Below the pieces are notes generated by a model that worked only from the letters and a program-made list of their open reading frames with translations, was not told the origin of the DNA and ran no database searches. A stretch of DNA of 52,178 nt from positions 1-52,178 of the forward strand of contig CAZTZB010000004.1 of NCBI GenBank assembly GCA_964617505.1, read 5' to 3'. This document shows, piece after piece, positions 6,287 to 52,178 of this stretch. The DNA is from an uncultured Peptostreptococcaceae bacterium (GTDB taxonomy: Bacteria > Bacillota > Clostridia > Peptostreptococcales > BM714). The position numbers were made by a program, and so were the translations under genes. Within the stretch, counting starts at the first letter, position 1; each line of letters starts with the position of its first letter.

Positions 6287-7699
6287 TCATTTTTCATAAC
6301 AAGCTTGCAGAATCGTTATTTTAAGCATGTTTTTAGTGCCTGCATCAGTCTTGTAAAGTTCACTCATTCGATGTCCTGCAACCCAAATGATTTCATTTTC
6401 GTCGCAAATAAGCAACACCCCATCACGCTTTACTTTTTCAACTTTTTCGTCAATCAGAAAATCCTTTAGTTTTTTTGTTCCCTTCATCCCCAGGGGAGAA
6501 AACCGATCTCCAATCCTCCTGTTTCTTACACTGAGTGATGCACTTTCAACCTTGCCTGCATCAATGAAAACAGTCCAAGCGTCTGTTCGCAGTTTAAACT
6601 CTTTCGAAAAAGGTATCAATTCCATTTCAATCAGATTTCCTGTTTCTTCAATGCAAAGTTTTTCCCCTATCTTGAGTGCATATTCAAATTCCGCCGTTAC
6701 TTGCCTTCTCTCCTTTACAGAAACAGAAATTAGCTTTCCTTGTATAGTAACATCAATTGATCCAGGAAATTCAATTGTCTTTTTTATCGAAGCCATTTCG
6801 ATTGCATTTATCGCCGATAACACGCGTTCACCTGTTATGTTTATCATATTACCCTTAACAATTTTAATGGCTCGCCTCAATATTCTAGTTTTTACGGCAA
6901 TGTGCTCTCGATTGAAATCTTCCCTCGCAATTGAAACCCTTCCACATTCGGAAACTTCAGCCATTTCATCAAATGCCTTTGCCGCAACTTTTTCGATAAA
7001 GTCACTGTCATTTCTTATCATATCCCCCATACGGTAAAGCGAATCTATTATTTTATTGTTGAAATTGGCCTCAATGTAGGGTAAAAGCTCAAGCCTTATT
7101 TTATTCCTTGTGTATACCGGTTCAAGGTTGGTAAGGTCTGTGCGCGGATTCAATTCATTTTCCGCACAATAATGCTCTATCTCTAAGCGTTTAAAAATCA
7201 ATATGGGCCGAATAAACAGTTTATCCCGTTTATGCTCTATTCCTGCAAGACCCTTAAGACCTGTACCCCTCATGATGCGCATCAATATAGTTTCCGCCTG
7301 ATCGTTCTGGTTTTGACCAAGAGCTATGCATCTGCTATTGTTATCTTTTGCTACCGACCTAAAAAGGTCATACCTTATTCTTCTCCCGGCTTCTTCGATG
7401 GACATTTTCCATTTTACAGCCATACCGGATACATCCCTTTCAACGGAAACGTATTCCAGCCCGTTTTGTCTGCAAAACTCAGAAACGAATAATGCGTCTC
7501 TTGCAGAATCTTCTCCTCTTAGCATATGGTTAATATGCACAGGTATCAGTATTAAGTCCCATTCTTCCCTGAGTCTTAAGAAGAGCGAAAGCATACAAAT
7601 GGAATCCGGTCCTCCTGAAATGCCCAGAACAACCGTATCCCCTTTTTTTAGCAATTCTTTTTCAACTATGTTTTTCTTAAATCTTTCAAACATTGCCAT
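6287..7699 (-). CDS. tilS: tRNA(Ile)-lysidine synthetase
   Basis: PP-loop SGGPDS, RRIRY, NQNDQAETILMRIMRGTGLKGL, YTRNKIR, C-terminal KKLKDFLID..IIWVAG. Confidence 0.96.
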   Translation of the reverse strand: MAMFERFKKNIVEKELLKKGDTVVLGISGGPDSICMLSLFLRLREEWDLILIPVHINHMLRGEDSARDALFVSEFCRQNGLEYVSVERDVSGMAVKWKMSIEEAGRRIRYDLFRSVAKDNNSRCIALGQNQNDQAETILMRIMRGTGLKGLAGIEHKRDKLFIRPILIFKRLEIEHYCAENELNPRTDLTNLEPVYTRNKIRLELLPYIEANFNNKIIDSLYRMGDMIRNDSDFIEKVAAKAFDEMAEVSECGRVSIAREDFNREHIAVKTRILRRAIKIVKGNMINITGERVLSAINAIEMASIKKTIEFPGSIDVTIQGKLISVSVKERRQVTAEFEYALKIGEKLCIEETGNLIEMELIPFSKEFKLRTDAWTVFIDAGKVESASLSVRNRRIGDRFSPLGMKGTKKLKDFLIDEKVEKVKRDGVLLICDENEIIWVAGHRMSELYKTDAGTKNMLKITILQACYEK

Positions 7700-9056: not shown

Positions 9057-10445
9057 CTACCGCTCCTTCCTGCCGCCAACGGTTATTGATTCGACACGCA
9101 AGGCCGGTTGCCCTACATTAACAGGAATGCTTCCGCTTATTGATCCGCACATTCCCTGGTCAAATGCCAAATTATCAGCCACCATATCTATTTTAGTAAG
9201 TATTGAAAGCCCATTTCCAATAAGTGTTGCGCCTCTTACCGGCTTTCCTATTCTCCCGTTTTCGATCAAGTAGCCCTCCATAACCGCAAAATTGAATTCT
9301 CCGCTTGCAGGATTCACAGATCCTCCGCCCATCTTTTTAGCATACAACCCATTATGTGTGTTTTCAATCAGATCTTCAAAACTGCTTTTGCCCGGAGCTA
9401 TATAGGTATTGGTCATTCTAGATGTCGGCGTATATTTATATGACTGGCGCCGCCCTGAGCCGGTTGGAGCCATCCCCATTTTCTTTCCGTTGAGTCTATC
9501 TATCATGTATCCCTTCAGAACTCCATTTTCTATCAAAACGTTCTTTCTAGTTTCTATTCCCTCATCGTCAAGTCTTGCTGAACCCCATTGCCCCGGAATA
9601 CTTCCGTCATCAATTGCAGTCAATACATCCGATGCAATTTTTTCTCCGATTTTACCTGCGAAAACAGATGTCCCCTTGGCAACAGATGTGGCTTCAAGTC
9701 CATGTCCACATGCTTCGTGAAAAATAACCCCTCCGAATCCATTGTCTATTACAACGGGCATTTTTCCGCTTGGAGCAAAATCGGCATGAAGCATTTTAAT
9801 AGCCGTTTCCGAAGCCGATACCGCATAGGCATTAAGATCAATCGTATCGTAGAATTCAAATCCCATTGAGGCCCCCGGTGCTGCGTGACCCGTTTGCATT
9901 TCACCGCCATATTCCGCTACCGTCTGTATTGATGTCCTTGTCCTCACCCTTTCGTCCTCTGCCCATAGACCTTCAGAGTTAGCAACGAGAATCTTTTGAA
10001 CGATATCCATATAATTGATTCTAACCTGTGTTATTTCGTTCGAAAAACCATTTGCCGCTTCATGTGCACTTTTTAGGATGCGTACTTTTTCTATTTTTCC
10101 TATGTCTCCGGGATATTTTAATATCTCCAAGAGATGGCTTCCATCGTATTTTCTAAAATCAAGCAAAACGCCTCTTCCTTTTCCCAAAAGTGCGAAAGAC
10201 GCTTTCCTCGCTACGGTCTTCAAATTTTCTAGAGATGTGTCGTTAGTATATGCATAAACGCTTTCGGTTCCTCTAATTATTCTTATCCCTACTCCATAAT
10301 CCTGACCCGAAACAGTCTTCTCCACAAGACCTCCAACCAATCCTATGGTTTGATTATTTGTCTGTTCTGCAAATATCTCAGAAAAATCAGCTCCATTCGA
10401 TAGAGCCGCATCCAATGTTTCCGCAATCACTCTTTTATCCAGCAT
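9057..10445 (-). CDS. tldD: TldD metalloprotease subunit
   Basis: FHEACGHGLE zinc motif, DDEG, RMTNT, CG..SGSIPV.VGQP. Start MLDKRV at 10445 behind a GGAGG RBS. Confidence 0.93.
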   Translation of the reverse strand: MLDKRVIAETLDAALSNGADFSEIFAEQTNNQTIGLVGGLVEKTVSGQDYGVGIRIIRGTESVYAYTNDTSLENLKTVARKASFALLGKGRGVLLDFRKYDGSHLLEILKYPGDIGKIEKVRILKSAHEAANGFSNEITQVRINYMDIVQKILVANSEGLWAEDERVRTRTSIQTVAEYGGEMQTGHAAPGASMGFEFYDTIDLNAYAVSASETAIKMLHADFAPSGKMPVVIDNGFGGVIFHEACGHGLEATSVAKGTSVFAGKIGEKIASDVLTAIDDGSIPGQWGSARLDDEGIETRKNVLIENGVLKGYMIDRLNGKKMGMAPTGSGRRQSYKYTPTSRMTNTYIAPGKSSFEDLIENTHNGLYAKKMGGGSVNPASGEFNFAVMEGYLIENGRIGKPVRGATLIGNGLSILTKIDMVADNLAFDQGMCGSISGSIPVNVGQPALRVESITVGGRKER

Positions 10446-11459: not shown

Positions 11460-11792
11460 CTAATTCACATCGTTGTTACTATCGCCTTCATCCTTAAAAC
11501 GGTATACTATGTCATTTTCCCTTACCAAATCCAACTCTTCTCTCGCTACATTCTCTATATAACTTTCCGTCTCGGCATCTTTAATTTCTTTTTCAATCTT
11601 TGCAAGCTCCTGCTCCTTTAGAGAAAGCTCATCCAATATTTTAGCCTCTTCCTGTTTCAAGTTATTTAGCATGCTTTGCTGTTTTAATATGACCATCGTA
11701 GAATATGAAGCAAGTACAAGCATTATTGCTATTGCAATAAAATTCCTTTTGATGAAATTTCCTTTCTTTTTCCGCTTTTTAGCAACAGCCAT
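11460..11792 (-). CDS. divIC: Septum formation initiator DivIC/FtsB
   Basis: Basic N-terminus, one TM segment, coiled coil, YIENVAREELDLV. Conserved position. Start at ATG 11792. Confidence 0.85.
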   Translation of the reverse strand: MAVAKKRKKKGNFIKRNFIAIAIMLVLASYSTMVILKQQSMLNNLKQEEAKILDELSLKEQELAKIEKEIKDAETESYIENVAREELDLVRENDIVYRFKDEGDSNNDVN

Positions 11793-11808
11793 GCAAAACA
11801 CCTCTCTT

Positions 11809-12054
11809 CTATTCAAATATTTCCTCAAACAAATCGGCCGCTTCTTCCTTTTTCACATGTTCCCTTACATCTTTAATCCTAAATCTCATTACTCTGCTTC
11901 CCGTTTCGATGGAAAGAATATCTCCAATAGCCACTTCCGCCCCCGGTTTTACAGCTTTCTCATTGATTTTTATGCGGCCCTTCTCGCATGACTCTTTAGC
12001 TATGGTTCTTCTTTTTATAATCCTCGATACCTTTAAAAATTTATCTACTCTCAA
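11809..12054 (-). CDS. yabO: S4-domain RNA-binding protein (YabO/RqcP)
   Basis: MRVDKFLKVSRIIKRRTIAKE..GRIKIN..KPG.EV..GD. Confidence 0.93.
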   Translation of the reverse strand: MRVDKFLKVSRIIKRRTIAKESCEKGRIKINEKAVKPGAEVAIGDILSIETGSRVMRFRIKDVREHVKKEEAADLFEEIFE

Positions 12055-12071
12055 AATTTATACCTCCTAAA

Positions 12072-12097
12072 TAAAAAAGCAGCCATAGGCTGCTTTT
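12072..12097 (-). terminator. Intrinsic terminator downstream of hup
   Basis: AAAAGCAGCC-ATA-GGCTGCTTTT with an A/T flank. Confidence 0.7.
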
Positions 12098-12208
12098 AAA
12101 ATGACTAAGATCTACCGATCAATGCTCTAGGCATTAAATAGAAGATCTCATCATTCTATCATTTGCGACTCTGACAACAACCTCAAAGCGGCCACAGGCA
12201 GCTTGTTT

Positions 12209-12487
12209 CTATTTGTTGACCAAATCTTTAAGAGCTTTACCAGCTTTAAATACAGGAGCCTTTGATGCCGGTATTTCTATTACTTGTTCCGGATTTCTAG
12301 GATTTCTTCCCTGTCTTGCCTTTCTTTCTTTTACATCAAATGTACCAAATCCTACAAGTTGCACTTTTTCTCCTGCAAGCAATGATTCTTGTATACTACT
12401 GACAAAAGAGTTCAAAGCCACCTCGGTATCTTTCTTAGTAAGCCCGGCTTTTTCAGCCATGCTAGCAATTAATTCAGCTTTATTCAT
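12209..12487 (-). CDS. hup: DNA-binding protein HU
   Basis: MNKAELI..., VQLVGFGTF, RQGRNP, PVFKAGKALKD. Confidence 0.97.
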   Translation of the reverse strand: MNKAELIASMAEKAGLTKKDTEVALNSFVSSIQESLLAGEKVQLVGFGTFDVKERKARQGRNPRNPEQVIEIPASKAPVFKAGKALKDLVNK

Positions 12488-12589
12488 AAATTTACTCCTC
12501 CTATAATATATTAATAATAATCATTCGTATATTTCATATTCTATGCAAAAGGGCTATTTCCTTTTTTTATTGCTTATTTTTTTTGAAAA

Positions 12590-14071
12590 TCAGTCTTTTT
12601 TTATTAATTTAGCCTCTTCCCACAACAAATCCATATCCTCAAGGGTCATTTCCTGCAAACTCAAACCTTTTTTCATTGCTGTTGTTTCAATATAGCTGAA
12701 TCTTTCGATAAATTTATCCACTGTAGAATTTAATGCTTCCTCGGGATCTATTTTCATGAATCTTGCTACATTAACCACGGAGAAAATCAGATCTCCGATT
12801 TCTTCTTTTGCCCTTTTCCTCGATATCACAGGCTTTTGGAAAACCTCGAGAAGTTCATCGGTTTCTTCTCTTACTTTATCAAATGCAGGACCGGCATCCG
12901 CCCAATCAAAACCCACCTTAGCAGCTTTCTTTTGAATTTTAACGCTCTTCATTAGTGCAGGCAAAGATTCAGGGACTCTTTTCATTGATTCAAAATGCAT
13001 CGTTTCCGATTTCTCTTCTCTTTTTATTTCTTCCCACTTGTCTTTGACTTTTTCTGCCGTTCTTATATCCTCTTCACCAAACACATGCGGATGTCTCCTG
13101 ACAAGCTTTTTGCATATTCCTCCAATAACATCTCCTATATCGAAAATACCGTTTTCTTCAGCCATCCTGCTATGAAAAACAACCTGTAAGAGAACATCTC
13201 CAAGCTCTTCGGTCATTAGCCCATAGTCATTCTTGTCAATGGCGTCCACCACTTCGTACGCCTCTTCAATCATACAGTTTCTTATGCTTTCATGGGTCTG
13301 TCTGCGGTCCCATGGACACCCGTCCTCGCTTCTAAGGCGAGCCATGATATCGATAAGATCTACGAAGCTTGGTTTCTCCTTTTGGCTACTTTCAAGAGCT
13401 GGGACATATAGACTTGTGAGATGGTCCAAGAAGTCGAGACGGTCTATCTCATACACCGGAATTTCTTCTATCCGCTCCATTCCCTTTATGCCGGCAGCTC
13501 TCACCGCCATCAGCATATGTTCATCACCAAAAAGTTCCGAAAGCGCCAGTTTGACTTCTGACGCCGTATATCGATCATATACCTGCGTAATCAATGTGTC
13601 CATTTTTGTATCGAACAATTGCTCCCGTATTTGAAGTCCGTCGACTATTCTAATTCCCATTACCGGATCTTTCCTGACCGCGGCAAGTACCGCATCTACA
13701 AAGCTGGCTGCTGGAATAAATTCCAAATCCAATAAACCTTCTTTTGATTTTTCAATCAAAAGCTGCACGGTATTTTCAGCCACAAAAGGGCTTCCCGGTA
13801 CCGCATAAACGATGTCGCCGTTTTTAGACTCCAAAATCAGGTCTTTGACTATATTCTCATATACCTCTTCAAATGTATCGTAGTTATCGTAGTAGGAATC
13901 AAATGTATTGAAGATAACTCCTTTCGCTCTTAGCCATTCTACCGTAGGGTGCTTTTCAGTTCTAAAAAAAAGTTTCTCTTTTTGTGTTCCCTTAATTTTT
14001 TCGTAGACATTAAATGATAGGTAATCCACACTTCCCGGTCCGAGCCCCACAATTATTATCTTATTTTCCAT
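12590..14071 (-). CDS. mazG: YabN-type tetrapyrrole methyltransferase-like / MazG NTP pyrophosphohydrolase fusion
   Basis: N-terminal IVGLGPG/LRTEKHP/YAVPGSP. MazG domains GCPWDRRQTH, EEAYEV, EELGDVLLQVVFH, RRHPHVF and second EEIGD. Confidence 0.93.
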   Translation of the reverse strand: MENKIIIVGLGPGSVDYLSFNVYEKIKGTQKEKLFFRTEKHPTVEWLRAKGVIFNTFDSYYDNYDTFEEVYENIVKDLILESKNGDIVYAVPGSPFVAENTVQLLIEKSKEGLLDLEFIPAASFVDAVLAAVRKDPVMGIRIVDGLQIREQLFDTKMDTLITQVYDRYTASEVKLALSELFGDEHMLMAVRAAGIKGMERIEEIPVYEIDRLDFLDHLTSLYVPALESSQKEKPSFVDLIDIMARLRSEDGCPWDRRQTHESIRNCMIEEAYEVVDAIDKNDYGLMTEELGDVLLQVVFHSRMAEENGIFDIGDVIGGICKKLVRRHPHVFGEEDIRTAEKVKDKWEEIKREEKSETMHFESMKRVPESLPALMKSVKIQKKAAKVGFDWADAGPAFDKVREETDELLEVFQKPVISRKRAKEEIGDLIFSVVNVARFMKIDPEEALNSTVDKFIERFSYIETTAMKKGLSLQEMTLEDMDLLWEEAKLIKKD

Positions 14072-31103: not shown

Positions 31104-31122
31104 TCCATCATTTTCAACCCTG

Positions 31123-31299
31123 CAAATCAGCGCCTCATCAATACTCATGCATTGATGACAGTGGCATGCCTATTTGACATGTCCCCAACATGCGGAACCG
31201 TTCAGGCCAATTCCCCACATTTCGGCGGTTGCACCTTTCATGACGCCAAGCCTGACAAAACAGCTGACATTACTCATTACATCCGCACCTCTAACTCAC
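31123..31299 (-). ncRNA. Lysine riboswitch (L-box) upstream of lysA-lysC
   Basis: Minus strand reads AGAGGTGC...GAGTA...GAAAGG...GCCGAA...TTGGG...GCCACTGTCA...GAGGCGCT, the conserved L-box blocks in order, upstream of lysine biosynthesis genes. Confidence 0.92.
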
Positions 31300-31330
31300 A
31301 ATAGAAGTTCACATATTCATTTATTCGTAT

Positions 31331-31430: not shown

Positions 31431-31482
31431 TAATATGTAATAGTTGTTTCTTTTAATAAAACACAACTTAATATTCGTTTTG

Positions 31483-31668
31483 TGCGATCAGAGGAGCGAA
31501 TGCAATCAGTAAACCGATACGTCATGGGAAACGGTATCGATTGAAAGGTGCATTTGCCGAAACCGTTTTTTCCGCCCGGGAAAACACAGTTGGGATCATG
31601 TCCGAACAGGCATGGTACTGTCAATCACCTTAAAAAAGGCGATTGAAGCGCTTTTTGCATGGATGAAA
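31483..31668 (+). ncRNA. Second lysine riboswitch, upstream of the NhaC-family transporter
   Basis: AGAGGAGC...CAGTA...GAAAGG...GCCGAA...TTGGG...ACTGTCA...GAAGCGCT blocks in order. Confidence 0.92.
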
Positions 31669-36561: not shown

Positions 36562-36598
36562 AAAAACCACTTCGGCAATTAAGTCGAAGTGGTTTTTT
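36562..36598. terminator. Intrinsic terminator downstream of asnS-lspA
   Basis: AAAAACCACTTCG-N10-CGAAGTGGTTTTT, 13-bp arms. Confidence 0.8.
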
Positions 36599-36700
36599 CT
36601 TTTGTTTATATTTGATTTTGTCTCTTTGCTTTTTCTACTTCCTACTTCATACTTTCCACTTTCCACTTTCACTGATTTCTGAGTCAACGCAGAAATCCGG
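36599..36700. repeat. Heptamer array locus A (NNNACTT x5) plus TTTG-rich tract and hairpin
   Basis: tctactt cctactt catactt tccactt tccactt (36634-36668), then hairpin GATTTCTG-agtcaacg-CAGAAATC. Confidence 0.8.
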
Positions 36701-36708
36701 CTTTCTCG

Positions 36709-37179: not shown

Positions 37180-38574
37180 CTAGAATTCAGAGTTTTTGGG
37201 TGTTCTAGGAAATGGAAGCACGTCCCTAATATTGCTCATCCCGGTTATATACATTATTACACGTTCTAGCCCCAATCCATAACCTGCGTGTTTGGCTCCC
37301 CCATACTTTCTGAGCTCTTTATACCACCAATAGTCGTCTTGATTGAGACCCATTTCGTTTATTCTTCTTTCGAGTACATCATATCGTTCTTCCCTTTGGC
37401 TTCCACCGATGATTTCCCCAACGCCCGGAACAAGAAGGTCCATTGCAGCAACTGTGTTCTCATCGTCATTTAAACGCATATAAAAAGCTTTTATATCCTT
37501 TGGATAATCAGTAACAAATATTGGCTTTTGGAATACCTTCTCCGTAAGGTATCTTTCATGCTCCGTTTGAAGGTCGCAACCCCACTCTACTGGATATTGA
37601 AAATCAACCTTTGCTTCTTTTAAAAGTTCTATCGCCTTTGTATATGTTATCCTTCCAAAATCCGAATTTACCACATTTTCCAGTCTATCCTTCAAGCCCT
37701 TGTCAATAAATTTGTTGAAAAATTCCATTTCATCTGGTGCCTGCTCCATAACATAGTTGATTACATACTTGATCATGTCCTCGGCAAGCTCCATGTTGTC
37801 GTCCAAATCGGCAAACGCTATTTCAGGCTCTACCATCCAAAACTCTGATGCATGTCTTGCAGTGTTTGAATTTTCAGCCCTAAATGTCGGCCCAAAGGTA
37901 TATACATTTCTGAAAGCAAGCGCGAATATCTCCGCTTCCAGTTGTCCACTTACCGTAAGATTGGATTCCTTTCCGAAGAAATCATTTTCGTAGTCTATTT
38001 TTCCTTCTTCATTCTTAGGCACATCATTTAGGTCAAGAGTCGTAACCCTAAACATCTCCCCTGCACCCTCGCAATCGCTTCCTGTAATGATCGGCGTATG
38101 AACATAAACAAATCCTCTATCCTGAAAAAACTTGTGAAGCGCATAGCTAACAAGCGACCTGACTCTGAATACGGCCGAAAAGGTATTGCTCCTCGGTCTT
38201 AAGTGGGCTATCGTTCTTAGATACTCGAATGTGTGCCTTTTCTTTTGAAGCGGGTAAGACTTTTCCGACTCCCCTTGCACTTCAATTGCATCGGCCTTAA
38301 TTTCGAATGGCTGTTTGGCGTCCGGAGTCAAAACAAGGGTCCCCTCAACAGAAATGGATGCGCTTATTCCAAGTTTTTTTATTGTTTCAAAGTTTTCCAA
38401 ATTTTCCTCGAAAACGATTTGAACATTCTTGAAAAAAGTCCCATCATTCAATTCTATGAATCCAAAAGCCTTTGAAGCTCTGCTAGTTCTAATCCAGCCA
38501 GCAACAGACACCTTTTTATCTGAATATGCATCCGGATTTTTGTAGATTTCCTTAATTAATTTAAATTTTTTCAT
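37180..38574 (-). CDS. asnS: Asparaginyl-tRNA synthetase
   Basis: OB-fold [52 protein letters not shown]. Start ATG 38574. Asn T-box upstream. Confidence 0.96.
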
Positions 38575-38604
38575 TCCACATTCACTCCTCACACAATATT
38601 TTCG

Positions 38605-38842
38605 CATAATAAAAGCCTTCCATCCAGCGTAAGGGACGAAAGGCGATTCCGCGGTGCCACCCTGATTGACATTTTCTGTCCATCTCGTTTTCGATATAAC
38701 GGTCGATACCGTCTGCGCCTAATCCTCACGTTTCGGACAGAAGCTCGGAAGTGTTATTCATCGAATGCTTCGCACCAGACTCTCACCATCTCCGGTTCGC
38801 TTAAGCTTCTGCAGCCGACTACTCTCTCCCTCATCGCTTTCT
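38605..38842 (-). ncRNA. T-box leader with Asn (AAC) specifier
   Basis: T-box AGGGTGGCACCGCG (38663-38650), specifier loop GAAU-AAC-A (38755-38753), terminator GCCTTTCGTCC...GGATGGAAGGC-TTTT. Confidence 0.92.
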
Positions 38843-38856
38843 ACTTCATCATTGCC

Positions 38857-41224: not shown

Positions 41225-41348
41225 CGCCTTTAATTTAACCCCGTGAGGTTGAGAAGGAACATACAAGTGAAGCACACTTGTATGGTTTTCATGACTATAA
41301 GGATTGAAACAAGCCTTTCTGCTCGCGAAGCAGAAAGGCTTTTATTTT
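41225..41348 (+). ncRNA. PyrR-binding attenuator
   Basis: Binding loop AACCCCGTGAGGTT (41237-41250), close to ARUCCNGNGAGGYU, within a CCTT...AAGG stem; terminator AAGCCTTTCTGC-N7-GCAGAAAGGCTTTT. Confidence 0.85.
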
Positions 41349-41408
41349 ACCCGGTTGTGGGGGCGTCTTATTTTATTAACACTTAATAAAATGAGAAAGG
41401 AGATTATT

Positions 41409-42632
41409 ATGGGAAATCTTGCACAAAAGGTTGTATCAATTTCCGGCGAACCTGAAATTTCATTGAACAAAAAGGTTGTTTTGGGGGTTCAGCATACATT
41501 CACCATGTTTGGAGCCACCGTACTTGTTCCACTCATCACAGGATTCGATATATCCGTAGCGCTTTTCATGGCCGGTGTTGGAACACTTCTATTCCACCTA
41601 ATCACCAAAGGAAAGGTCCCGGCATTTCTTGGTTCTTCCTTCGCCTTCATCCCTCCTGTTATGGCGGCAATGGCAGCCTCCGACATGCAATACGCACAGG
41701 GAGGCTTGGTAGTAGCCGGCCTTATCTACCTTGTAATGGCTGGTCTAATAAGCATCTTTGGAACAGAGAAGATAGTCAGTTTCTTCCCTCCAATCATAAC
41801 AGGTCCAATCATAATAGTAATAGGACTTAAGCTTGCACCTACCGCAATAGGCATGGCCAGCGGAAACTGGATGCTTGCAGTAGTAAGCTTCGCTATTGTA
41901 ACGGTAGTAAGCATATACGGAAAGGGCTTCATACAGGTTCTACCAGTACTGGTAGGACTCGCAGGAGGCTATATTTTCTCCATAGTTACAGGCCACGTAG
42001 ACTTTAGCGGCGTAATAGCAGCAAATTGGTTCGGCGTTCCCCACTTCCAAATGGCAAAATTCAGCCTGAGCACAATAATGATGGTAGCTCCGGTAGCAAT
42101 AGCCACAATGGTGGAGCACATTGGCGATGTAATAGCCATAGGAGCCACCACGAATAATGATTTCATGAAGGATCCAGGACTCAAACGAACACTTCTTGGA
42201 GACGGAATCGCAACATCGCTTTCAGCAATGTTCGGCGGACCGGCCAACACAACCTACTCTGAGAACATAGGCGTATTGGCTCTTACAAAGGTTTATAATC
42301 CGCAAATCATGAGAATAGCCGCAGGATTTGCAATACTTCTTGGAATAATGCCTAAGCTCGGCGCTATAATAAGTTCGGTACCTACAGCAGTTATAGGAGG
42401 CATCTCTATCATACTCTTCGGAATGATAGCCTCTATAGGAGCCAGAACTTTGGTAGACAACAAGATAGACTTCAATAAATCCAGGAACCTTATCATTTCA
42501 GCAGTAATACTTGTTCTAGGACTTGGAGGAGCTTCCCTCCCCGTAAACATCGCAGGAGCAAGCTTTGCTATTGAAGGCATGGCGCTTGCAGCAATCGTTG
42601 GAATTATTTTAAACAAAGTTTTGCCTCAGTAA
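41409..42632 (+). CDS. uraA: Uracil permease (NCS2 family)
   Basis: GVQHTFTMFGATVLVP, PAFLGSSFAF, EHIGD, GDGIAT, ANTTYSEN. Start ATG 41409 behind a GAAAGGAG RBS. Confidence 0.93.
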   Translation: MGNLAQKVVSISGEPEISLNKKVVLGVQHTFTMFGATVLVPLITGFDISVALFMAGVGTLLFHLITKGKVPAFLGSSFAFIPPVMAAMAASDMQYAQGGLVVAGLIYLVMAGLISIFGTEKIVSFFPPIITGPIIIVIGLKLAPTAIGMASGNWMLAVVSFAIVTVVSIYGKGFIQVLPVLVGLAGGYIFSIVTGHVDFSGVIAANWFGVPHFQMAKFSLSTIMMVAPVAIATMVEHIGDVIAIGATTNNDFMKDPGLKRTLLGDGIATSLSAMFGGPANTTYSENIGVLALTKVYNPQIMRIAAGFAILLGIMPKLGAIISSVPTAVIGGISIILFGMIASIGARTLVDNKIDFNKSRNLIISAVILVLGLGGASLPVNIAGASFAIEGMALAAIVGIILNKVLPQ

Positions 42633-42645
42633 AATCTTAAAACTC

Positions 42646-42689
42646 AAATGAGCCACACCGGAAAGTAATTCCGGTGCGGCTCATTTTTT
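42646..42689 (+). terminator. Intrinsic terminator after uraA
   Basis: AAATGAGCCACACCGGAA...TTCCGGTGCGGCTCATTTTTT. Confidence 0.85.
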
Positions 42690-42729
42690 CGTTATTATGA
42701 AAGTAGAATCTTTATTATTTCCACAGTCT

Positions 42730-43035
42730 TCTGTTTTTTATTTTTTGTTTTTCTGACAACTGACATCTGATATCTGCCAACTGCTCTCCCACTTCTTGCT
42801 TTTTTTGTCTTTCGCTTTTTCTGTCATCTGCCATCCGATATCTGACATCTGCCCCACCTTCAAGCGCCTTTTAGGCAACGCCGAAATTGGTGTTTTAGTA
42901 GTAAGTAGTAAGTGGAACAGAAAAACAAAATCAATTATAAATGCAAATTACACTAAACATACACGTTCAATGTTTTTTGCTTTGATTTTTGTTTTAATCT
43001 TTTTCTGCAAACTGCATACTGCCAACTTGTAACAG
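42730..43035. repeat. Heptamer array locus B (three CTGNNAN arrays, AGTAAGT array, imperfect inverted A/T arms)
   Basis: ctgacaa ctgacat ctgatat ctgccaa ctgctct cccactt (42753-42794); ctgtcat ctgccat ccgatat ctgacat (42821-42848); agtaagtagtaagtg (42900-42914); ctgcaaa ctgcata ctgccaa (43005-43025). Confidence 0.85.
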
Positions 43036-43083
43036 AGTAAAATACCCTTTTATTCAATACGTGACAGAAGGATTTTTACGATG

Positions 43084-44598
43084 CTATTCTTTTTCGATTC
43101 CACCCTCATCATACTTGTTGGATGGGTTCCAAAGCATGAAGCCTTCAACTCCATTGTCATTGAGTCCCTTTATTTGAGCCTTTATCTGATCCGCGCCATA
43201 CCTTATATATCCTTTTACATATGTCGCTGTAAAATCCTGTATCCAAGGCCTTATTATTGCCGGGGTTTCTATGTTTTTGTTCTTCATTACCGAATCCTTT
43301 GTGCACCTGTAAATCGTTTCATACGGGAAAGCATCCGGAACGCTTAGTCCGTAAACTCCAGGCCCGTAATGGCTAGGATACATCATCGGGGATATATAGT
43401 CCACAACATTACTTATTGCCTCCCAATACTGACCTATTCCCATGTCGTCTCCAACCGAACCAACAAGGCCGAATACATCAGCCGAGATATATACTTCGTA
43501 TGGATCAAGTTCCTCTCTAGCGTACTTGAGGAAATTCTGAACGGCGAGCGGTTTTGATTCCCCTAGTTTGTTCTTGTAATCCAAATATGCATCTTTTTTT
43601 CCACCATTCGATGTCGGGAACCTTACATAGTCGAACTGTATTTCATTAAAGCCCGCTTCCGCAGCTTCTTTTGCCACTCCCAAGATATATTCCCAAAGCT
43701 CTCTATCGTAGGCACTGCTCCATTGTATATTTTCCTTGAAATAGAAAGGTGCCCCGCTATCCTTGTAAACAACACCTGACTCCGGATGCTCCTTGACATA
43801 CTTTGGATCTACAAAGCATACTATTCTTGCAATAGTATAGATATCGTGTTCCTTAAGTTTTTTCATTAGGGCATCTATATCCTTAACCGGAACACTCTTA
43901 TTTGCGCTCGGATTTAATCTTGATGCAGTTTCGGTTTCGAAAAGCATGCTTCCGTTATCGTCCTTCATATTTATTACGAATGCATTTATTCTTGTCTTGT
44001 CCGCAAGCTCGATCAATTCATCAACCCTGCTGCTTCCTGCAGAATACGCCGTAAGGTATATGCCGTTTGTAGTTATTCTAGGATTGCTCTCATAATTTCC
44101 CTTTATCTGTGGCGAAAAATCGATATCCTCATATCCTGGACCAAGAAGTTCCATCTTGTCTTTTACTGTATACTCTGCCGAAACCCATCCTGAATCACCA
44201 TTCTCATGCTCATAAAAAATCTTATACCAAGCAGGAAGACCATCTTCAGCAAACACTGTTTCGATTACAGAAACCTGAGATCCCTTTATGATTTTTCCTA
44301 CAATCGATGCATTTGCTTGACCGTCACTTCGTACATTAAGCACATTGGCACTGATGTAGAGTAATTCGTCCTTGTTTCCATCTTCAACTACCGTTTCCTC
44401 TCCTGCTGTTTCTTCCCCTTCTATTTCCCCTGCCGTTTCTTCGATTTCCTCGAAGCCTTCAGAAACCACTTCTTCACCAGATTGCTCTTCATCGTTTTCG
44501 GTTGCCGAAGAAGGGACTTCCTTATCTTCGCAACCTGCAAACATCAATACAATAGTCAATAAAAATAGAATTGGTATAATTCCTTTTCTCCTCTTCAT
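43084..44598 (-). CDS. Lipoprotein with SH3b domain and DUF4015-like putative glycoside hydrolase
   Basis: Lipobox FAGC, Glu-rich linker, LNVRS...WY.I...GWVS (SH3b), TIM-barrel motifs GIYLT, FNEIQFDYVRFP, SADVFG, DYISPMMYPSHY, RPWIQDF. Confidence 0.8.
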   Translation of the reverse strand: MKRRKGIIPILFLLTIVLMFAGCEDKEVPSSATENDEEQSGEEVVSEGFEEIEETAGEIEGEETAGEETVVEDGNKDELLYISANVLNVRSDGQANASIVGKIIKGSQVSVIETVFAEDGLPAWYKIFYEHENGDSGWVSAEYTVKDKMELLGPGYEDIDFSPQIKGNYESNPRITTNGIYLTAYSAGSSRVDELIELADKTRINAFVINMKDDNGSMLFETETASRLNPSANKSVPVKDIDALMKKLKEHDIYTIARIVCFVDPKYVKEHPESGVVYKDSGAPFYFKENIQWSSAYDRELWEYILGVAKEAAEAGFNEIQFDYVRFPTSNGGKKDAYLDYKNKLGESKPLAVQNFLKYAREELDPYEVYISADVFGLVGSVGDDMGIGQYWEAISNVVDYISPMMYPSHYGPGVYGLSVPDAFPYETIYRCTKDSVMKNKNIETPAIIRPWIQDFTATYVKGYIRYGADQIKAQIKGLNDNGVEGFMLWNPSNKYDEGGIEKE

Positions 44599-51647: not shown

Positions 51648-51699
51648 TACAATATACCCTAGTAGGGTATATTGTAGCATGCTTTTAAACCCCGCGCAA
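51648..51699 (-). promoter_or_regulatory. CsoR-type operator overlapping the promoter of the ferredoxin gene
   Basis: 13-bp perfect arms TACAATATACCCT-AGT-AGGGTATATTGTA containing ATACCC-N5-GGGTAT. It overlaps the -10 TACAAT; -35 TTGCGC lies 17 nt away. Confidence 0.75.
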
Positions 51700-51935: not shown

Positions 51936-51954
51936 TTTTTCCTCCTTGTAATAG

Positions 51955-52178
51955 TTACAGATATCAGTTGGTAGCTGGCAGTTGGCAGTAAATACAAAAA
52001 CGTTTAAACCCAAAATGTGTTTTCTATGTTTTGTTTTGTCTTTTGCTTTTACTTTTATTTGCTACTGCTTGCTGTTCTTTCTTTGCTTCTGTCTTTAAAG
52101 CTTTTTTTCACTTACTACTTACTTCTGTTATTAACGTTTTCTACTTTCCACTTTCCACTTCCTACTTTTTTGTCAACG
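51955..52178. repeat. Heptamer array locus C (runs to window edge)
   Basis: atatcag ttggtag ctggcag ttggcag (51961-51988); TTTTG(C/T) hexamer-like tract; cacttactacttact (52109-52123); tctactt tccactt tccactt cctactt (52140-52167); gtcaacg. Confidence 0.85.

Follow-up and report, generated by a model that had tools for sequence, protein, structure and literature searches.

The spacer at positions 42730-43035 (locus B) of the 52,178-nucleotide stretch of DNA analysed here (the window) reads as one of three window copies of a lineage-wide family of heptanucleotide simple-sequence arrays that turn over by slippage, keep a selected register and have a role at transcript boundaries. We give this account as a whole an even chance of being right. 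The family is a Clostridial (Peptostreptococcales-like) counterpart of two known kinds of repeat, the STRR of cyanobacteria and the TAACTGA heptamers found in Beggiatoaceae, Cyanobacteria and Bacteroidetes.

A period-7 signal is found at only three places in the window, all of them intergenic, at 36.6, 42.7-43.0 and 52.0 kb (loci A, B and C). Lag-7 autocorrelation across the whole window flagged 36584-36706, 42698-42861 and 52101-52175 as the sole regions, and apart from a few period-9 windows no other period from 3 to 12 was flagged comparably. TRF gives period-7 rows at loci A, B and C, which identifies them as head-to-tail direct repeats of 7 nt. Chains of four CTG-N4 units occur twice in the window (0.00 expected from 100 dinucleotide shuffles) and chains of three ACTT-N3 units five times (0.00 expected in shuffles), so that the heptad chains exceed the expectation from local composition. 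Each module follows a simple grammar, in which a T-rich leader, often finishing with TYAATCTTTTYC or AAACGYTTTTGYATTT, precedes three to five units of CTGNNNN or YYACTTY that read as NAG-N4 on the other strand. The core of the unit is CTG, more rarely CTT or CTA, the remaining four positions are free, and the unit types are CTGAYAY, CTGCNNA and YYACTTY. All-against-all BLAST of the three loci reveals shared stretches consisting only of heptad words of 14-21 nt. The arrays match no family in Rfam 15 at gathering score, under which the window contains only a T-box and two lysine riboswitches, all located elsewhere, nor do arrays at 19 related loci (gathering score) or in two spacers searched with permissive E-values. 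A function as a three-frame stop module, with TGA every 7 nt, would suit the CTGA units and was discarded because half of the window units (CTGC..., YYACTTY) contain no stop.

Locus B lies between the gene for Xan_ur_permease (uraA; + strand, 41304-42632) and that for a DUF4015+SH3 protein (- strand, 43084-44598). The intrinsic terminator of uraA, at about 42647-42689 on the + strand, folds into an 18-bp stem and is usable from both strands. Reading of the sequence bears out the claim of the first-pass annotation that locus B is built from heptad blocks of two classes, here M1 to M4. M1 (42727-42787, + strand) consists of a T-rich leader at 42727-42752 and the units CTGACAA CTGACAT CTGATAT CTGCCAA CTGCTCT at 42753-42787, as read from the sequence and supported by TRF and shuffles. 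M2 (42800-42855, + strand; sequence read, TRF) has the leader TTTTTTTGTCTTTCGCTTTTT and the units CTGTCAT CTGCCAT CCGATAT CTGACAT CTGCCCC at 42821-42855. At 42861-42895 on the - strand there is a remnant of a non-heptad dispersed repeat (ACACCAATTTCGGCGTTGCC ... GGCGCTTGAAGG, with ACACCAATTTCGGCGTTGC at 42875-42893), homologous to a tandem repeat of 110 bp that relatives carry in this spacer. M3 (42897-42936, - strand) is inverted and reads AGTAGTA AGTAGTA AGTGGA plus ACAGAAAAACAAAATCAA, or, on the - strand, the leader TTGATTTTGTTTTTCTGT followed by TCCACTT ACTACTT ACTACT. M4 (42973-43032, + strand), whose leader TTTTTTGCTTTGATTTTTGTTTTAATCTTTTT ends in the punctuation TTTAATCTTTTT, continues with CTGCAAA CTGCATA CTGCCAA CTTGTAA and abuts the 3' end of the DUF4015 gene. 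The TTTTG/AAAAC tracts that had been described as separating the blocks are present, but they form the U-tract and A-tract sides of terminator-like hairpins, and a non-heptad remnant also lies between the blocks. All of the words quoted as shared with distant loci are exact. The 15-nt AGTAAGTAGTAAGTG at 42900, in M3, is the exact reverse complement of 52109-52123 in locus C, TACTGCCAACT (43017) and CTGATATCTG (42767) have inverted copies at 51980 and 51958, respectively, and AAAAACAAAATCAA and TTTGATTTTTGTTTT are found at 42921 and 42981. Such words are shared between loci because the heptad vocabulary is small.

Locus A, downstream of lspA, has a single arm only. Its bidirectional intrinsic terminator hairpin at 36562-36597 (15 pairs and then a T-run, from a terminator scan and from reading the sequence) is followed on the + strand by the T-rich leader TCTTTTGTTTATATTTGATTTTGTCTCTTTGCTTTTT at 36598-36634 (56% T, 6% G), which on the - strand is an A-rich stretch of the lspA 3' UTR, and by the heptads CTACTTC CTACTTC ATACTTT CCACTTT CCACTTT CACTG at 36635-36674 (+ strand; TRF, autocorrelation, shuffles). 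On the sense strand of lspA these heptads are (AAGT-N3)n, with the stop codon on one side and the terminator on the other, and upstream of the 36562-36597 hairpin they read AAGTGGA AAGTGGA AAGTATG AAGTAGG AAGTAGA. A separate dispersed motif, the 'X' hairpin CGAGAAAGCCGGATTTCTGCGTTG..., occupies 36675-36708 on the - strand directly after the lspA stop; it is also found 3' of copA and, in relatives, 3' of the DUF4015 gene. A hammerhead-like reading of this motif (CUGACGAGAAA) was abandoned on inspection by eye, since most copies lack the conserved A of CUGA and stem II.

Locus C is the copA-copZ spacer. M5 (51954-52006, - strand; read from the sequence, with an orthologous array in the related contig L008) comprises the punctuation TTTAAACGTTTTTGTATTTA and the units CTGCCAA CTGCCAG CTACCAA CTGATAT CTGTAAC, and stops just upstream of the RBS, 18 nt short of the copZ ATG (51935). 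M6 (52017-52178, + strand) has a long T-rich leader, then CACTTAC TACTTAC TTCTG and CTACTTT CCACTTT CCACTTC CTACTTT, and runs past the end of the window; the full spacer was read from L066 (9545-10000). The window and one scaffold end at locus C or carry gaps there. The punctuation was also considered as a promoter, with TTTAAT as the -10 element, and this was rejected because copZ has no -35 element at a workable distance. The arrays of the window adjoin intrinsic terminators, stop codons and one ribosome-binding site.

Comparison of assemblies and of relatives shows that the arrays grow, shrink and turn over as entire 7-nt units are added or lost, through replication slippage and not through transposition of a fixed element. 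Among otherwise identical assemblies of one population, locus C holds one, two or three TGGAAAG units; strain-level variation is therefore present at locus C, but not at loci A and B, whose lengths are invariant in six and four assemblies, respectively. The contigs L311 and L316 differ by a one-heptad and a four-heptad indel next to a conserved terminator, and heptad indels also separate L312 from L324 and L313 from L318. These whole-heptad indels at orthologous arrays, together with the one, two or three units at locus C, agree with the earlier proposal of an unannotated dispersed family that is shuffled per heptad and not copied whole. Relatives with ~78% nucleotide identity use the same grammar in the lspA and copZ spacers, with other units and copy numbers (2 vs 14). 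In the region 3' of lspA, L008 carries 14 CTGAYAY units, L009 carries two together with inverted CAGNNNN arms, L007 has traces only, and the more distant L015 has a plain terminator only. Upstream of the copZ RBS, L008 has CTGACAA CTGATAA CTGAAAA CTGAAAT where the window has the M5 units given above, with the core retained and the variable positions swapped; L007 has no array at this site. From these sequences, the 7-base register looks constrained. The CTG/CAG register would be held by selection, because it persists through complete turnover of the other four positions.

Unit-wise change would also be expected if the arrays were a neutral by-product of slippage and of quasi-palindrome correction at replication forks stalled near terminator hairpins, with the CTG core a product not of selection but of biased mutation, for example through a preference of the slippage intermediate. 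We regard this explanation as unlikely. Arrays do appear and vanish at orthologous sites, which is as compatible with a dispensable or neutral element as with a useful one. Of the long simple repeats in bacteria, heptanucleotides are the most frequent, they are generally over-represented among bacterial simple repeats, and slippage has been proposed as their source, as far as Mrazek (2007) is summarised in PMC4679880. A neutral origin accounts less well for the fixation of three adjacent positions while four are replaced, which is seen at the same copZ site across species and in dozens of independent arrays. Nor does it readily explain why some lineages are densely supplied with heptad arrays, whereas sister lineages have none at the corresponding loci (Wukongibacter L012 and L016; L341).

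The exact words of 10-15 nt that are inverted between loci, the arrangement of an inverted arm and a second arm around a centre, the modules present as blocks in one genome and missing in its relative, and the punctuation motifs common to several genomes could also be read as traces of a non-autonomous mobile element (MITE/REP-like) or of an empty cassette site. The latter had been put forward in the first-pass annotation as an empty site or scar, perhaps with four-helix-bundle, GxxExxY or TnpA(REP) cargo. We consider mobility highly improbable. The copies have no constant ends and no target-site duplications, no two of them are alike in composition, and the L311/L316-type orthologous spacers differ module by module, with no duplications at the borders. 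No cargo ORF, including the three kinds just named, was found among ~90 arrays in the 227 kb surveyed, every array examined lacks a neighbouring transposase, RAYT or cargo ORF, and a Pfam scan of ten array-flanking window proteins found no transposase domain. ORFs that overlap arrays were dismissed because they are artefacts of the repeats themselves, and a gene apparently enclosed between inverted modules in L322 proved to be a fold-back assembly artefact. In relatives, the orthologous uraA-DUF4015 spacers hold no inserted ORFs and no heptad arrays but the 110-bp tandem repeat, joined in one case by a group II intron; the array of locus B is unique to the source species among the relatives compared. 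A search of 2.9 million viral contigs with two punctuated patterns yielded no match, and thus no sign of phage carriage. Among the matches listed for generic CTGx6 and ACTTx5 patterns, the repeats were unrelated.

The family extends beyond the window to relatives, metagenome contigs, Desulfobaccales and Gemmatimonadales. A clade-specific pattern retrieved 24 metagenome contigs, and most spacers in them hold further arrays that the pattern did not force. It is in non-coding DNA, at the boundaries of transcripts, that the modules accumulate. The array-bearing contigs, 227 kb in total, were in part selected for containing one array, and their ORFs were assigned by a crude longest-ORF rule; with a coding density of 83%, they have 82 of their 91 arrays between genes and 9 within ORFs. 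Such non-coding placement would be expected of neutral arrays as well. In the same 227 kb, neighbouring arrays follow the order purine-rich (R) then pyrimidine-rich (Y) 17 times and the reverse four times, and the arrays nearest a gene 3' end are purine-rich in the sense of that gene in 40 cases vs 17. A bias of position and of order is shown by the intergenic placement (82:9) and the R-Y order (17:4). A gene 5' end is the nearest gene end for 18 of 75 arrays, and most arrays are found at 3' ends or terminators; those lying in forward orientation close to start codons include M5 of locus C and arrays in L008, L331, L332 and L338. The R and Y arms are separated by hairpins or terminators. The preferred order is a purine-rich (NAG-N4)n array, an A-tract, a terminator or other hairpin, a T-tract and a pyrimidine-rich (CTG-N4)n array. 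This order is identical on both strands, so that a polymerase arriving from either side meets the same sequence of elements.

Two further features of placement argue against a neutral by-product. The punctuation motifs upstream of unforced arrays are enriched about 36-fold and 57-fold, and arrays are precisely positioned against mature RNA 5' ends and RBSs. In the rRNA operon of L327, Y arrays finish 0-7 nt before the 5' ends of the 5S RNA, of two tRNAs and of the 23S RNA, and one tRNA is bracketed by a Y and an R array that are complementary at 16 of 17 positions. Some array ends of the form CTGYTCTTTAA seem to resemble boxA (TGCTCTTTAACAA).

The transcribed arrays might be the platform of an oligomeric single-strand RNA-binding protein with a 7-nt register, by analogy with HutP and TRAP. 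Bound to (XAG-N4)n upstream of terminator hairpins, such a protein would set read-through; a cold-shock-domain or S1-type protein on the pyrimidine strand would be a variant. We judge this rather unlikely, slightly more so than the neutral origin. The purine strand carries a near-invariant AG (as CAG, AAG or TAG) every 7 nt in all classes. HutP reads at least three XAG triplets at 7-nt spacing, with specificity for the A and the G, just 5' of the intrinsic terminator in the B. subtilis hut leader (PMC2425495), and locus A, with (AAGT-N3)5 between the lspA stop and the terminator, is arranged similarly, as are many R arrays. Series of at least three XAG triplets at 4-nt spacing occur 5' of the terminator at locus A and likewise in L009, L316 and L326, and R-type arrays predominate 40:17 in the 3' UTR sense. 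Cold-shock proteins bind heptanucleotides (PMC1904285), and Csp, S1 or CsrA have been suggested by MacGregor as ligands of TAACTGA arrays (PMC4679880). However, hut is a single regulatory locus, and for HutP the XAG triplets must recur on the 3' side of the stem, as a second cluster within the 3' half of the terminator, whereas the present arrays occur at many loci, have complementary CTG units on the 3' side and are linked to no HutP gene. Both orientations occur in the transcribed sense, with five Y and two R arrays in the rRNA operon. GTCTTTK, the consensus for CspB, shows no enrichment in the window (26 occurrences vs 18.6 expected) and is found only once in the loci. Comparable heptads are also present in phyla from which, to our knowledge, HutP has not been reported. 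A tblastn search of the contigs analysed for HutP and Csp genes found none, but with a small sample it is uninformative.

Locus B (z = -5.9) and the L009 spacer (z = -4.8) each fold as one long hairpin around a terminator, and the arms of L009 are complementary at 15 of 15 positions, while the fold of locus C is not significant (z = -1.6). Cognate R and Y arms have a duplex energy of -16.5 kcal/mol, vs -15.0 kcal/mol for non-cognate arms (p = 0.28). Since cognate arms are no more complementary than arms from different loci, specific cis pairing is not maintained, and we ruled it out as an explanation. The absence of covariation between cognate arms would also be expected of neutral arrays. The palindromy of the arrays stems only from the opposite orientation of whole arrays, and the repeated block itself is a 7-nt direct repeat.

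Both orientations of the arrays, head-to-head around a centre, could suit a protein that binds double-stranded DNA, polymerises on it with a register of 7 bp and serves between transcription units as a roadblock, as a supercoil barrier or to anchor the nucleoid. The models for this would be the omega repressor on the heptads of inc18 plasmids and REP/BIME sequences with gyrase or IHF. A core of 3-4 bp every 7 bp would suit contacts of the ribbon-helix-helix type, as in omega-DNA structures. BIMEs sit between convergent genes and after terminators, and the present arrays share this siting. We nevertheless find such a protein very unlikely. It would have to be very tolerant to accept several cores (CTG, ACTT and others) with very different flanks, no candidate gene was found, and the rRNA-operon arrays abutting mature RNA ends point to RNA and not to DNA.

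In the transcript-boundary account that we prefer, the most likely use of the arrays would be in the transcript, as register-tolerant flanks that pair with each other or are bound with a 7-nt footprint. Such flanks would act beside terminators, ribosome-binding sites and the ends of stable RNAs, and the heptads may extend or insulate these boundary structures. A broader and doubtful proposal is that CTG-core arrays in R-hairpin-Y order at transcript boundaries and at the 5' ends of tRNA, 5S and 23S RNAs constitute a 'boundary code' of several phyla, either recognised by a conserved factor whose footprint is 7 nt, or supplying register-tolerant arms that pair for RNase III-type processing and fail-safe termination. 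The phyla concerned are Bacillota, Thermodesulfobacteriota and Gemmatimonadota from the present sequences, and Cyanobacteria, Beggiatoaceae and Bacteroidota from the literature. Desulfobaccales contigs have CTG-core heptads in R-hairpin-Y order, and similar CTG-core heptads are found at Gemmatimonadales loci that had been fetched for an unrelated reason. Gemmatimonadales also show the R-hairpin-Y order with quite different units (GGTGAGA/TCTCACC), as a neutral process would allow. In Desulfobaccales the punctuation occurs only at the site orthologous to the forced match, and its sharing by several phyla could be due to chance, given the many arrays with T-rich leaders.

Among known systems, the TAACTGA repeats are close in several respects. 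They are tandem 7-nt intergenic units at many loci per genome, in 2-6 and sometimes tens of copies, often directly upstream of start codons, as are locus C and the L008 array at copZ, and their strains differ by 7-nt indels (MacGregor 2015, PMC4679880). TAACTGA is CTGATAA in another frame, which is a single unit of the L008 copZ array; no tandem TAACTGA/CTGATAA occurs in the window. Unlike that one exact heptamer, the present unit is degenerate (CTG plus four free positions) and has a second class, YYACTTY; most present arrays flank terminators and 3' ends and not start codons, they have recurrent punctuation and R-hairpin-Y order, and their host is Clostridial, a group not listed in PMC4679880. 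The STRR of heterocystous cyanobacteria, like the long simple-sequence repeats of Mrazek, are dispersed non-coding heptanucleotide arrays whose abundance is lineage-specific and which are attributed to polymerase slippage; the comparison with cyanobacterial STRR made in the first-pass annotation is apt. The STRR consensus units are CCCCAGT, TTGGTCA and CAACAGT, and none of the present units (CTGAYAY, CTGCNNA, YYACTTY) equals one of them. We know of no description of terminator association, inverted arm order or punctuation in STRR. REP/BIME sequences of enterobacteria resemble the arrays in lying after stop codons, between convergent genes and beside terminators, in being mosaics of a small motif set in variable number and both orientations, and in their potential for extended hairpins in mRNA 3' ends. 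In contrast to the palindromic REP unit of about 35 nt, the present block is a 7-nt direct repeat, it changes by unit slippage, and no RAYT transposase is known for it or was seen in the 52 kb plus 10 kb of this genome that were analysed.

No function has been accepted for heptanucleotide repeats since they became known in 1990 (cyanobacteria) and 2015 (Beggiatoaceae). An uncultured Clostridial lineage now shows the same kind of element, and hypotheses on its function become testable through several of its features: a fixed 3-nt register with free spacers, punctuation, strand-symmetric placement at terminators and an rRNA operon of one relative in which each mature RNA is abutted by arrays. 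The arrays break assemblies and create spurious ORFs, which matters for the annotation of metagenome-assembled genomes. If the register is not read, the arrays would provide a clean record, left by nature, of how slippage and quasi-palindrome correction act at terminators. If it is read by a factor, they would constitute a global layer of control at transcript ends, and if the 'boundary code' is true, the long-unexplained STRR and TAACTGA repeats would have a common function.

Lag-7 autocorrelation across the window flags only three stretches, 36584-36706 (locus A, downstream of lspA), 42698-42861 (locus B) and 52101-52175 (locus C, at copZ), and the period-7 rows from TRF coincide with them; at other periods the scan of the window gives nothing except a few period-9 windows. 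Four consecutive CTG-N4 units occur twice in the window and three consecutive ACTT-N3 units five times, compared to 0.00 expected for either pattern in dinucleotide shuffles. The exact words and inverted matches reported in the first-pass annotation are all found where it had placed them. The words common to the loci, to which it drew attention, are accounted for by a small heptad vocabulary. The host is an uncultured Clostridial organism, whose DUF4015 protein shares 74-82% identity with proteins from Peptostreptococcaceae/Clostridiales MAGs and ~55% with Wukongibacter. The plus strand of the window is rich in C and T (GC skew ~ –0.2) and the minus strand carries most of the genes. Rfam also identifies two divergent lysine riboswitches 180 nt apart (31120-31301, minus strand; 31481-31661, plus strand) and a T-box leader (38629-38843, minus strand) upstream of a class II (Asp/Asn/Lys-type) tRNA synthetase gene (37180-38607).

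All modules follow one plan, a T-rich leader with 3-5 heptads after it on that strand. Three unit classes occur: CTGAYAY, CTGCNNA and YYACTTY. They share a frame in which each unit starts with CT plus G, T or A, and the opposite strand shows CAG, AAG or TAG at 7-nt intervals; each leader forms the U-tract side of a hairpin. Locus B separates uraA/pyrP (41304-42632, plus strand; Xan_ur_permease, preceded by a PyrR-like gene) from the convergent DUF4015+SH3 gene (43084-44598, minus strand). The sequence over 42400-43400 reveals four modules after the uraA terminator: M1 and M2 follow it, and M3 and M4 form an inverted pair with a 36-nt centre. Read along the lspA strand, locus A begins with the stop codon and the small hairpin X, continues with five AAGT-N3 units and an A-rich stretch, and closes with a strong bidirectional terminator. 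Locus C is truncated by the window end, and L066, a 74-kb scaffold of the same organism, identifies it as the 456-bp copA-copZ spacer. There an X hairpin comes first, then a different motif in two copies, AAGT-N3 arrays, an extended A-rich stretch, a centre, TTTAAACGTTTTTGTATTTA and finally five CTG-N4 units, which stop just short of the copZ RBS. Motif X, (CAGACTGR)CGAGAA-N-TTTCTNCGTTG, is a second dispersed element in these lineages, found in several genomes immediately past the stop codons of unrelated genes (window 36685-36708, minus strand; L066 9546-9577; relatives L008 2272-2303 and 19567-19590, and L009 14487-14510; contigs L311 8282-8313 and L316 13275-13306). Between copZ and a small ferredoxin gene lies a perfect 13-bp palindrome, TACAATATACCC-TAG-TAGGGTATATTGTA (51648-51676), listed as a hairpin by the terminator scan, which we take to resemble a CsoR-type copper operator.

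Within the species, locus B is identical in six assemblies and locus A shows no length variation among four. At locus C, TGGAAAG is present in one copy (L068), two (window, L067) or three (L066, L069, L070), the remaining sequence being identical. Both the window end (52178) and an N-gap in the L067 scaffold from another sample (~9550-9600) lie directly beside this copy-variable array; heptad repeats break short-read assemblies.

Three syntenic relatives (L007, L008 and L009) have ~76-80% nucleotide identity to the window over coding DNA. L008 and L009 share with it the terminator hairpin downstream of lspA, which CAG-N4 arrays adjoin on the side of the gene and CTG-N4 plus TTTCYAC arrays on the opposite side. 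The CTGAYAY units there number 14 in L008 and 2 in L009; L007 retains only traces of heptads, and L015 (49% amino-acid identity) has a plain terminator only. Upstream of copZ, L008 reads CTGACAA CTGATAA CTGAAAA CTGAAAT where the window has its array, and L007 has no heptad array. The uraA-DUF4015 spacer holds heptads in none of the relatives; it is filled by a ~110-bp tandem repeat, TTGACGAGAAACACCAATTTYGGCG...CGCCTTGAACTTGAAGATTCTCGTCAA (L007 11300-11730, L009 8270-8420, L008 11520-11600), of which a remnant (42861-42895) with the core ACACCAATTTCGGCGTTGC (42875-42893) persists in the window. From presence or absence and rebuilt units at orthologous spacers, we therefore conclude that arrays are gained, lost and rebuilt at the species level; the CTG register is kept wherever an array persists. 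The ~110-bp repeat contains inverted repeats, and an assembly gap falls within its L007 copy. In one relative, L008, a group II intron (11700-13600; GTGCG 5' end, 470-aa ORF) lies directly after the uraA terminator.

A single scan of metagenome contigs used a clade-specific pattern, in which three CTG-N4 units come after TTTAATCTTTTY. It matched 24 contigs, all 24 of which exceed the required unit number, and most hold many further, unforced arrays. The window, four relatives and 19 non-redundant contigs make up a 227-kb set, in which the metagenome contigs were picked for one array each and have crude gene calls. In this set, with a coding density of 83%, intergenic arrays number 82 and those overlapping ORFs 9, the ORFs concerned being mostly repeat artefacts. 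Neighboring arrays of opposite orientation run from purine-rich (R) to pyrimidine-rich (Y) in 17 cases and from Y to R in 4, and a hairpin, often a terminator, usually separates R and Y. Arrays closest to a gene 3' end are purine-rich in the sense of that gene (40:17), and those closest to a 5' end are pyrimidine-rich (11:7). Two punctuation motifs precede unforced arrays, YAATCYTT (17%, vs 0.5% of background positions) and AAACGCTTTTGYATTT (9% vs 0.2%). The related contig pairs L311/L316, L312/L324 and L313/L318 differ by whole-heptad indels adjoining conserved terminators. As judged from these sequences, the data fit a slippage-driven simple-sequence family rather than a transposable unit. 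The arrays show no constant ends, target duplications, like copies or associated ORF, and a mobile element is to us a highly improbable identity for them. One contig (L322 1-4228) is a fold-back palindrome over its entire length with arms 100% complementary, and was rejected as an assembly artefact.

Contig L327, whose 23S most closely matches a Peptostreptococcales species (77%), carries an rRNA operon (1-2010, Rfam) of unusual order, 16S-5S-tRNA-tRNA-23S. The 5' ends of 5S, tRNA 1, tRNA 2 and 23S lie 3, 7, 0 and 2 nt beyond the ends of CTG-N4 arrays that have a GTTTTT leader, and CAG-type arrays, with AAAAAGATTRA after them, follow 16S and tRNA 2; the arrays flanking tRNA 2 are complementary at 16/17 positions. 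Both orientations are therefore tolerated within heavily transcribed, processed RNA. A conserved ~230-nt element (L324 473-704 and 6671-6908, L312 978-1209, L311 ~7300-7495; strong predicted fold, –42 to –50 kcal/mol) is flanked, like tRNA 2, by arrays of the CTG type and the CAG type on opposite sides. Rfam yields no match for the element, which may be a novel small RNA or a further repeat.

Similar arrays are found in other phyla. L333 (53% GC), one of whose proteins shares 82-90% identity with entries labelled Desulfobaccales or Thermodesulfobacteriota, has a spacer reading CAGTAAT CAGTAAT CAGTGGC CAG AAAAAGATTAAAAC AACTGAC AACTGAC; its relative L338 (58% GC) bears arrays of CTGATCA, CTGATTA or CTGACTA units, seven of them within 21 kb, and the more distant L341 has none. 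Gemmatimonadales loci, fetched solely for encoding DUF4015, contain CCATCAG CCATCAG - CTGAAGG x3 CTGATGG x2 and also GGTGAGA - hairpin - TCTCACC. Together with the published TAACTGA arrays (PMC4679880), TAACTGA being equal to CTGATAA, these loci show a wide distribution both of CTG-core heptads and of the R-hairpin-Y layout. We do not claim cross-phylum conservation of the punctuation motif, because many arrays have T-rich leaders and the few high-GC pattern matches could be chance. Heptads with other cores occur in more distant Clostridia, TGAAACT/TGGAACT just 5' of an RBS (L014 9902-9971) and GCTAACA/GCTAAGA (L017 6831-6889). On a 60% GC contig (L326 323-392), ten perfect CTAACCC units, whose opposite strand (GGGGTTA) is G-quadruplex-prone, are sited downstream of a terminator, with CAGGGGT arrays as counterpart on its other side. 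The kind is already known from STRR, TAACTGA and long simple-sequence repeats. To our knowledge, and within the literature searchable, the Clostridial host, the degenerate core-plus-spacer unit, the punctuation motifs and the terminator-centred symmetric order with rRNA-operon placement are new.

The arrays have real potential to pair: folding gives one long hairpin each for locus B (z = –5.9) and the L009 spacer (z = –4.8), and no such fold for locus C (z = –1.6). Pairing, if relevant, would be generic and register-tolerant rather than co-evolved, because cognate arms pair no better than unrelated arms. The purine strand agrees with the formal HutP site, in which XAG recurs every 7 nt on the 5' side of a terminator (PMC2425495), but the 3' half of that site is unmatched and no protein has been linked to it. 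The CspB consensus shows no enrichment. We consider a platform for an RNA-binding protein improbable, and a DNA-binding array very unlikely. That the arrays are purely a neutral by-product, our second-ranked reading, is possible but doubtful. The comparisons show unit-wise change, location at transcript boundaries, strand-symmetric order and a core that persists despite spacer turnover. Ranked first, with about even credence, is that the arrays may be constrained slippage repeats acting at transcript boundaries, in which the heptad core would be kept by selection.
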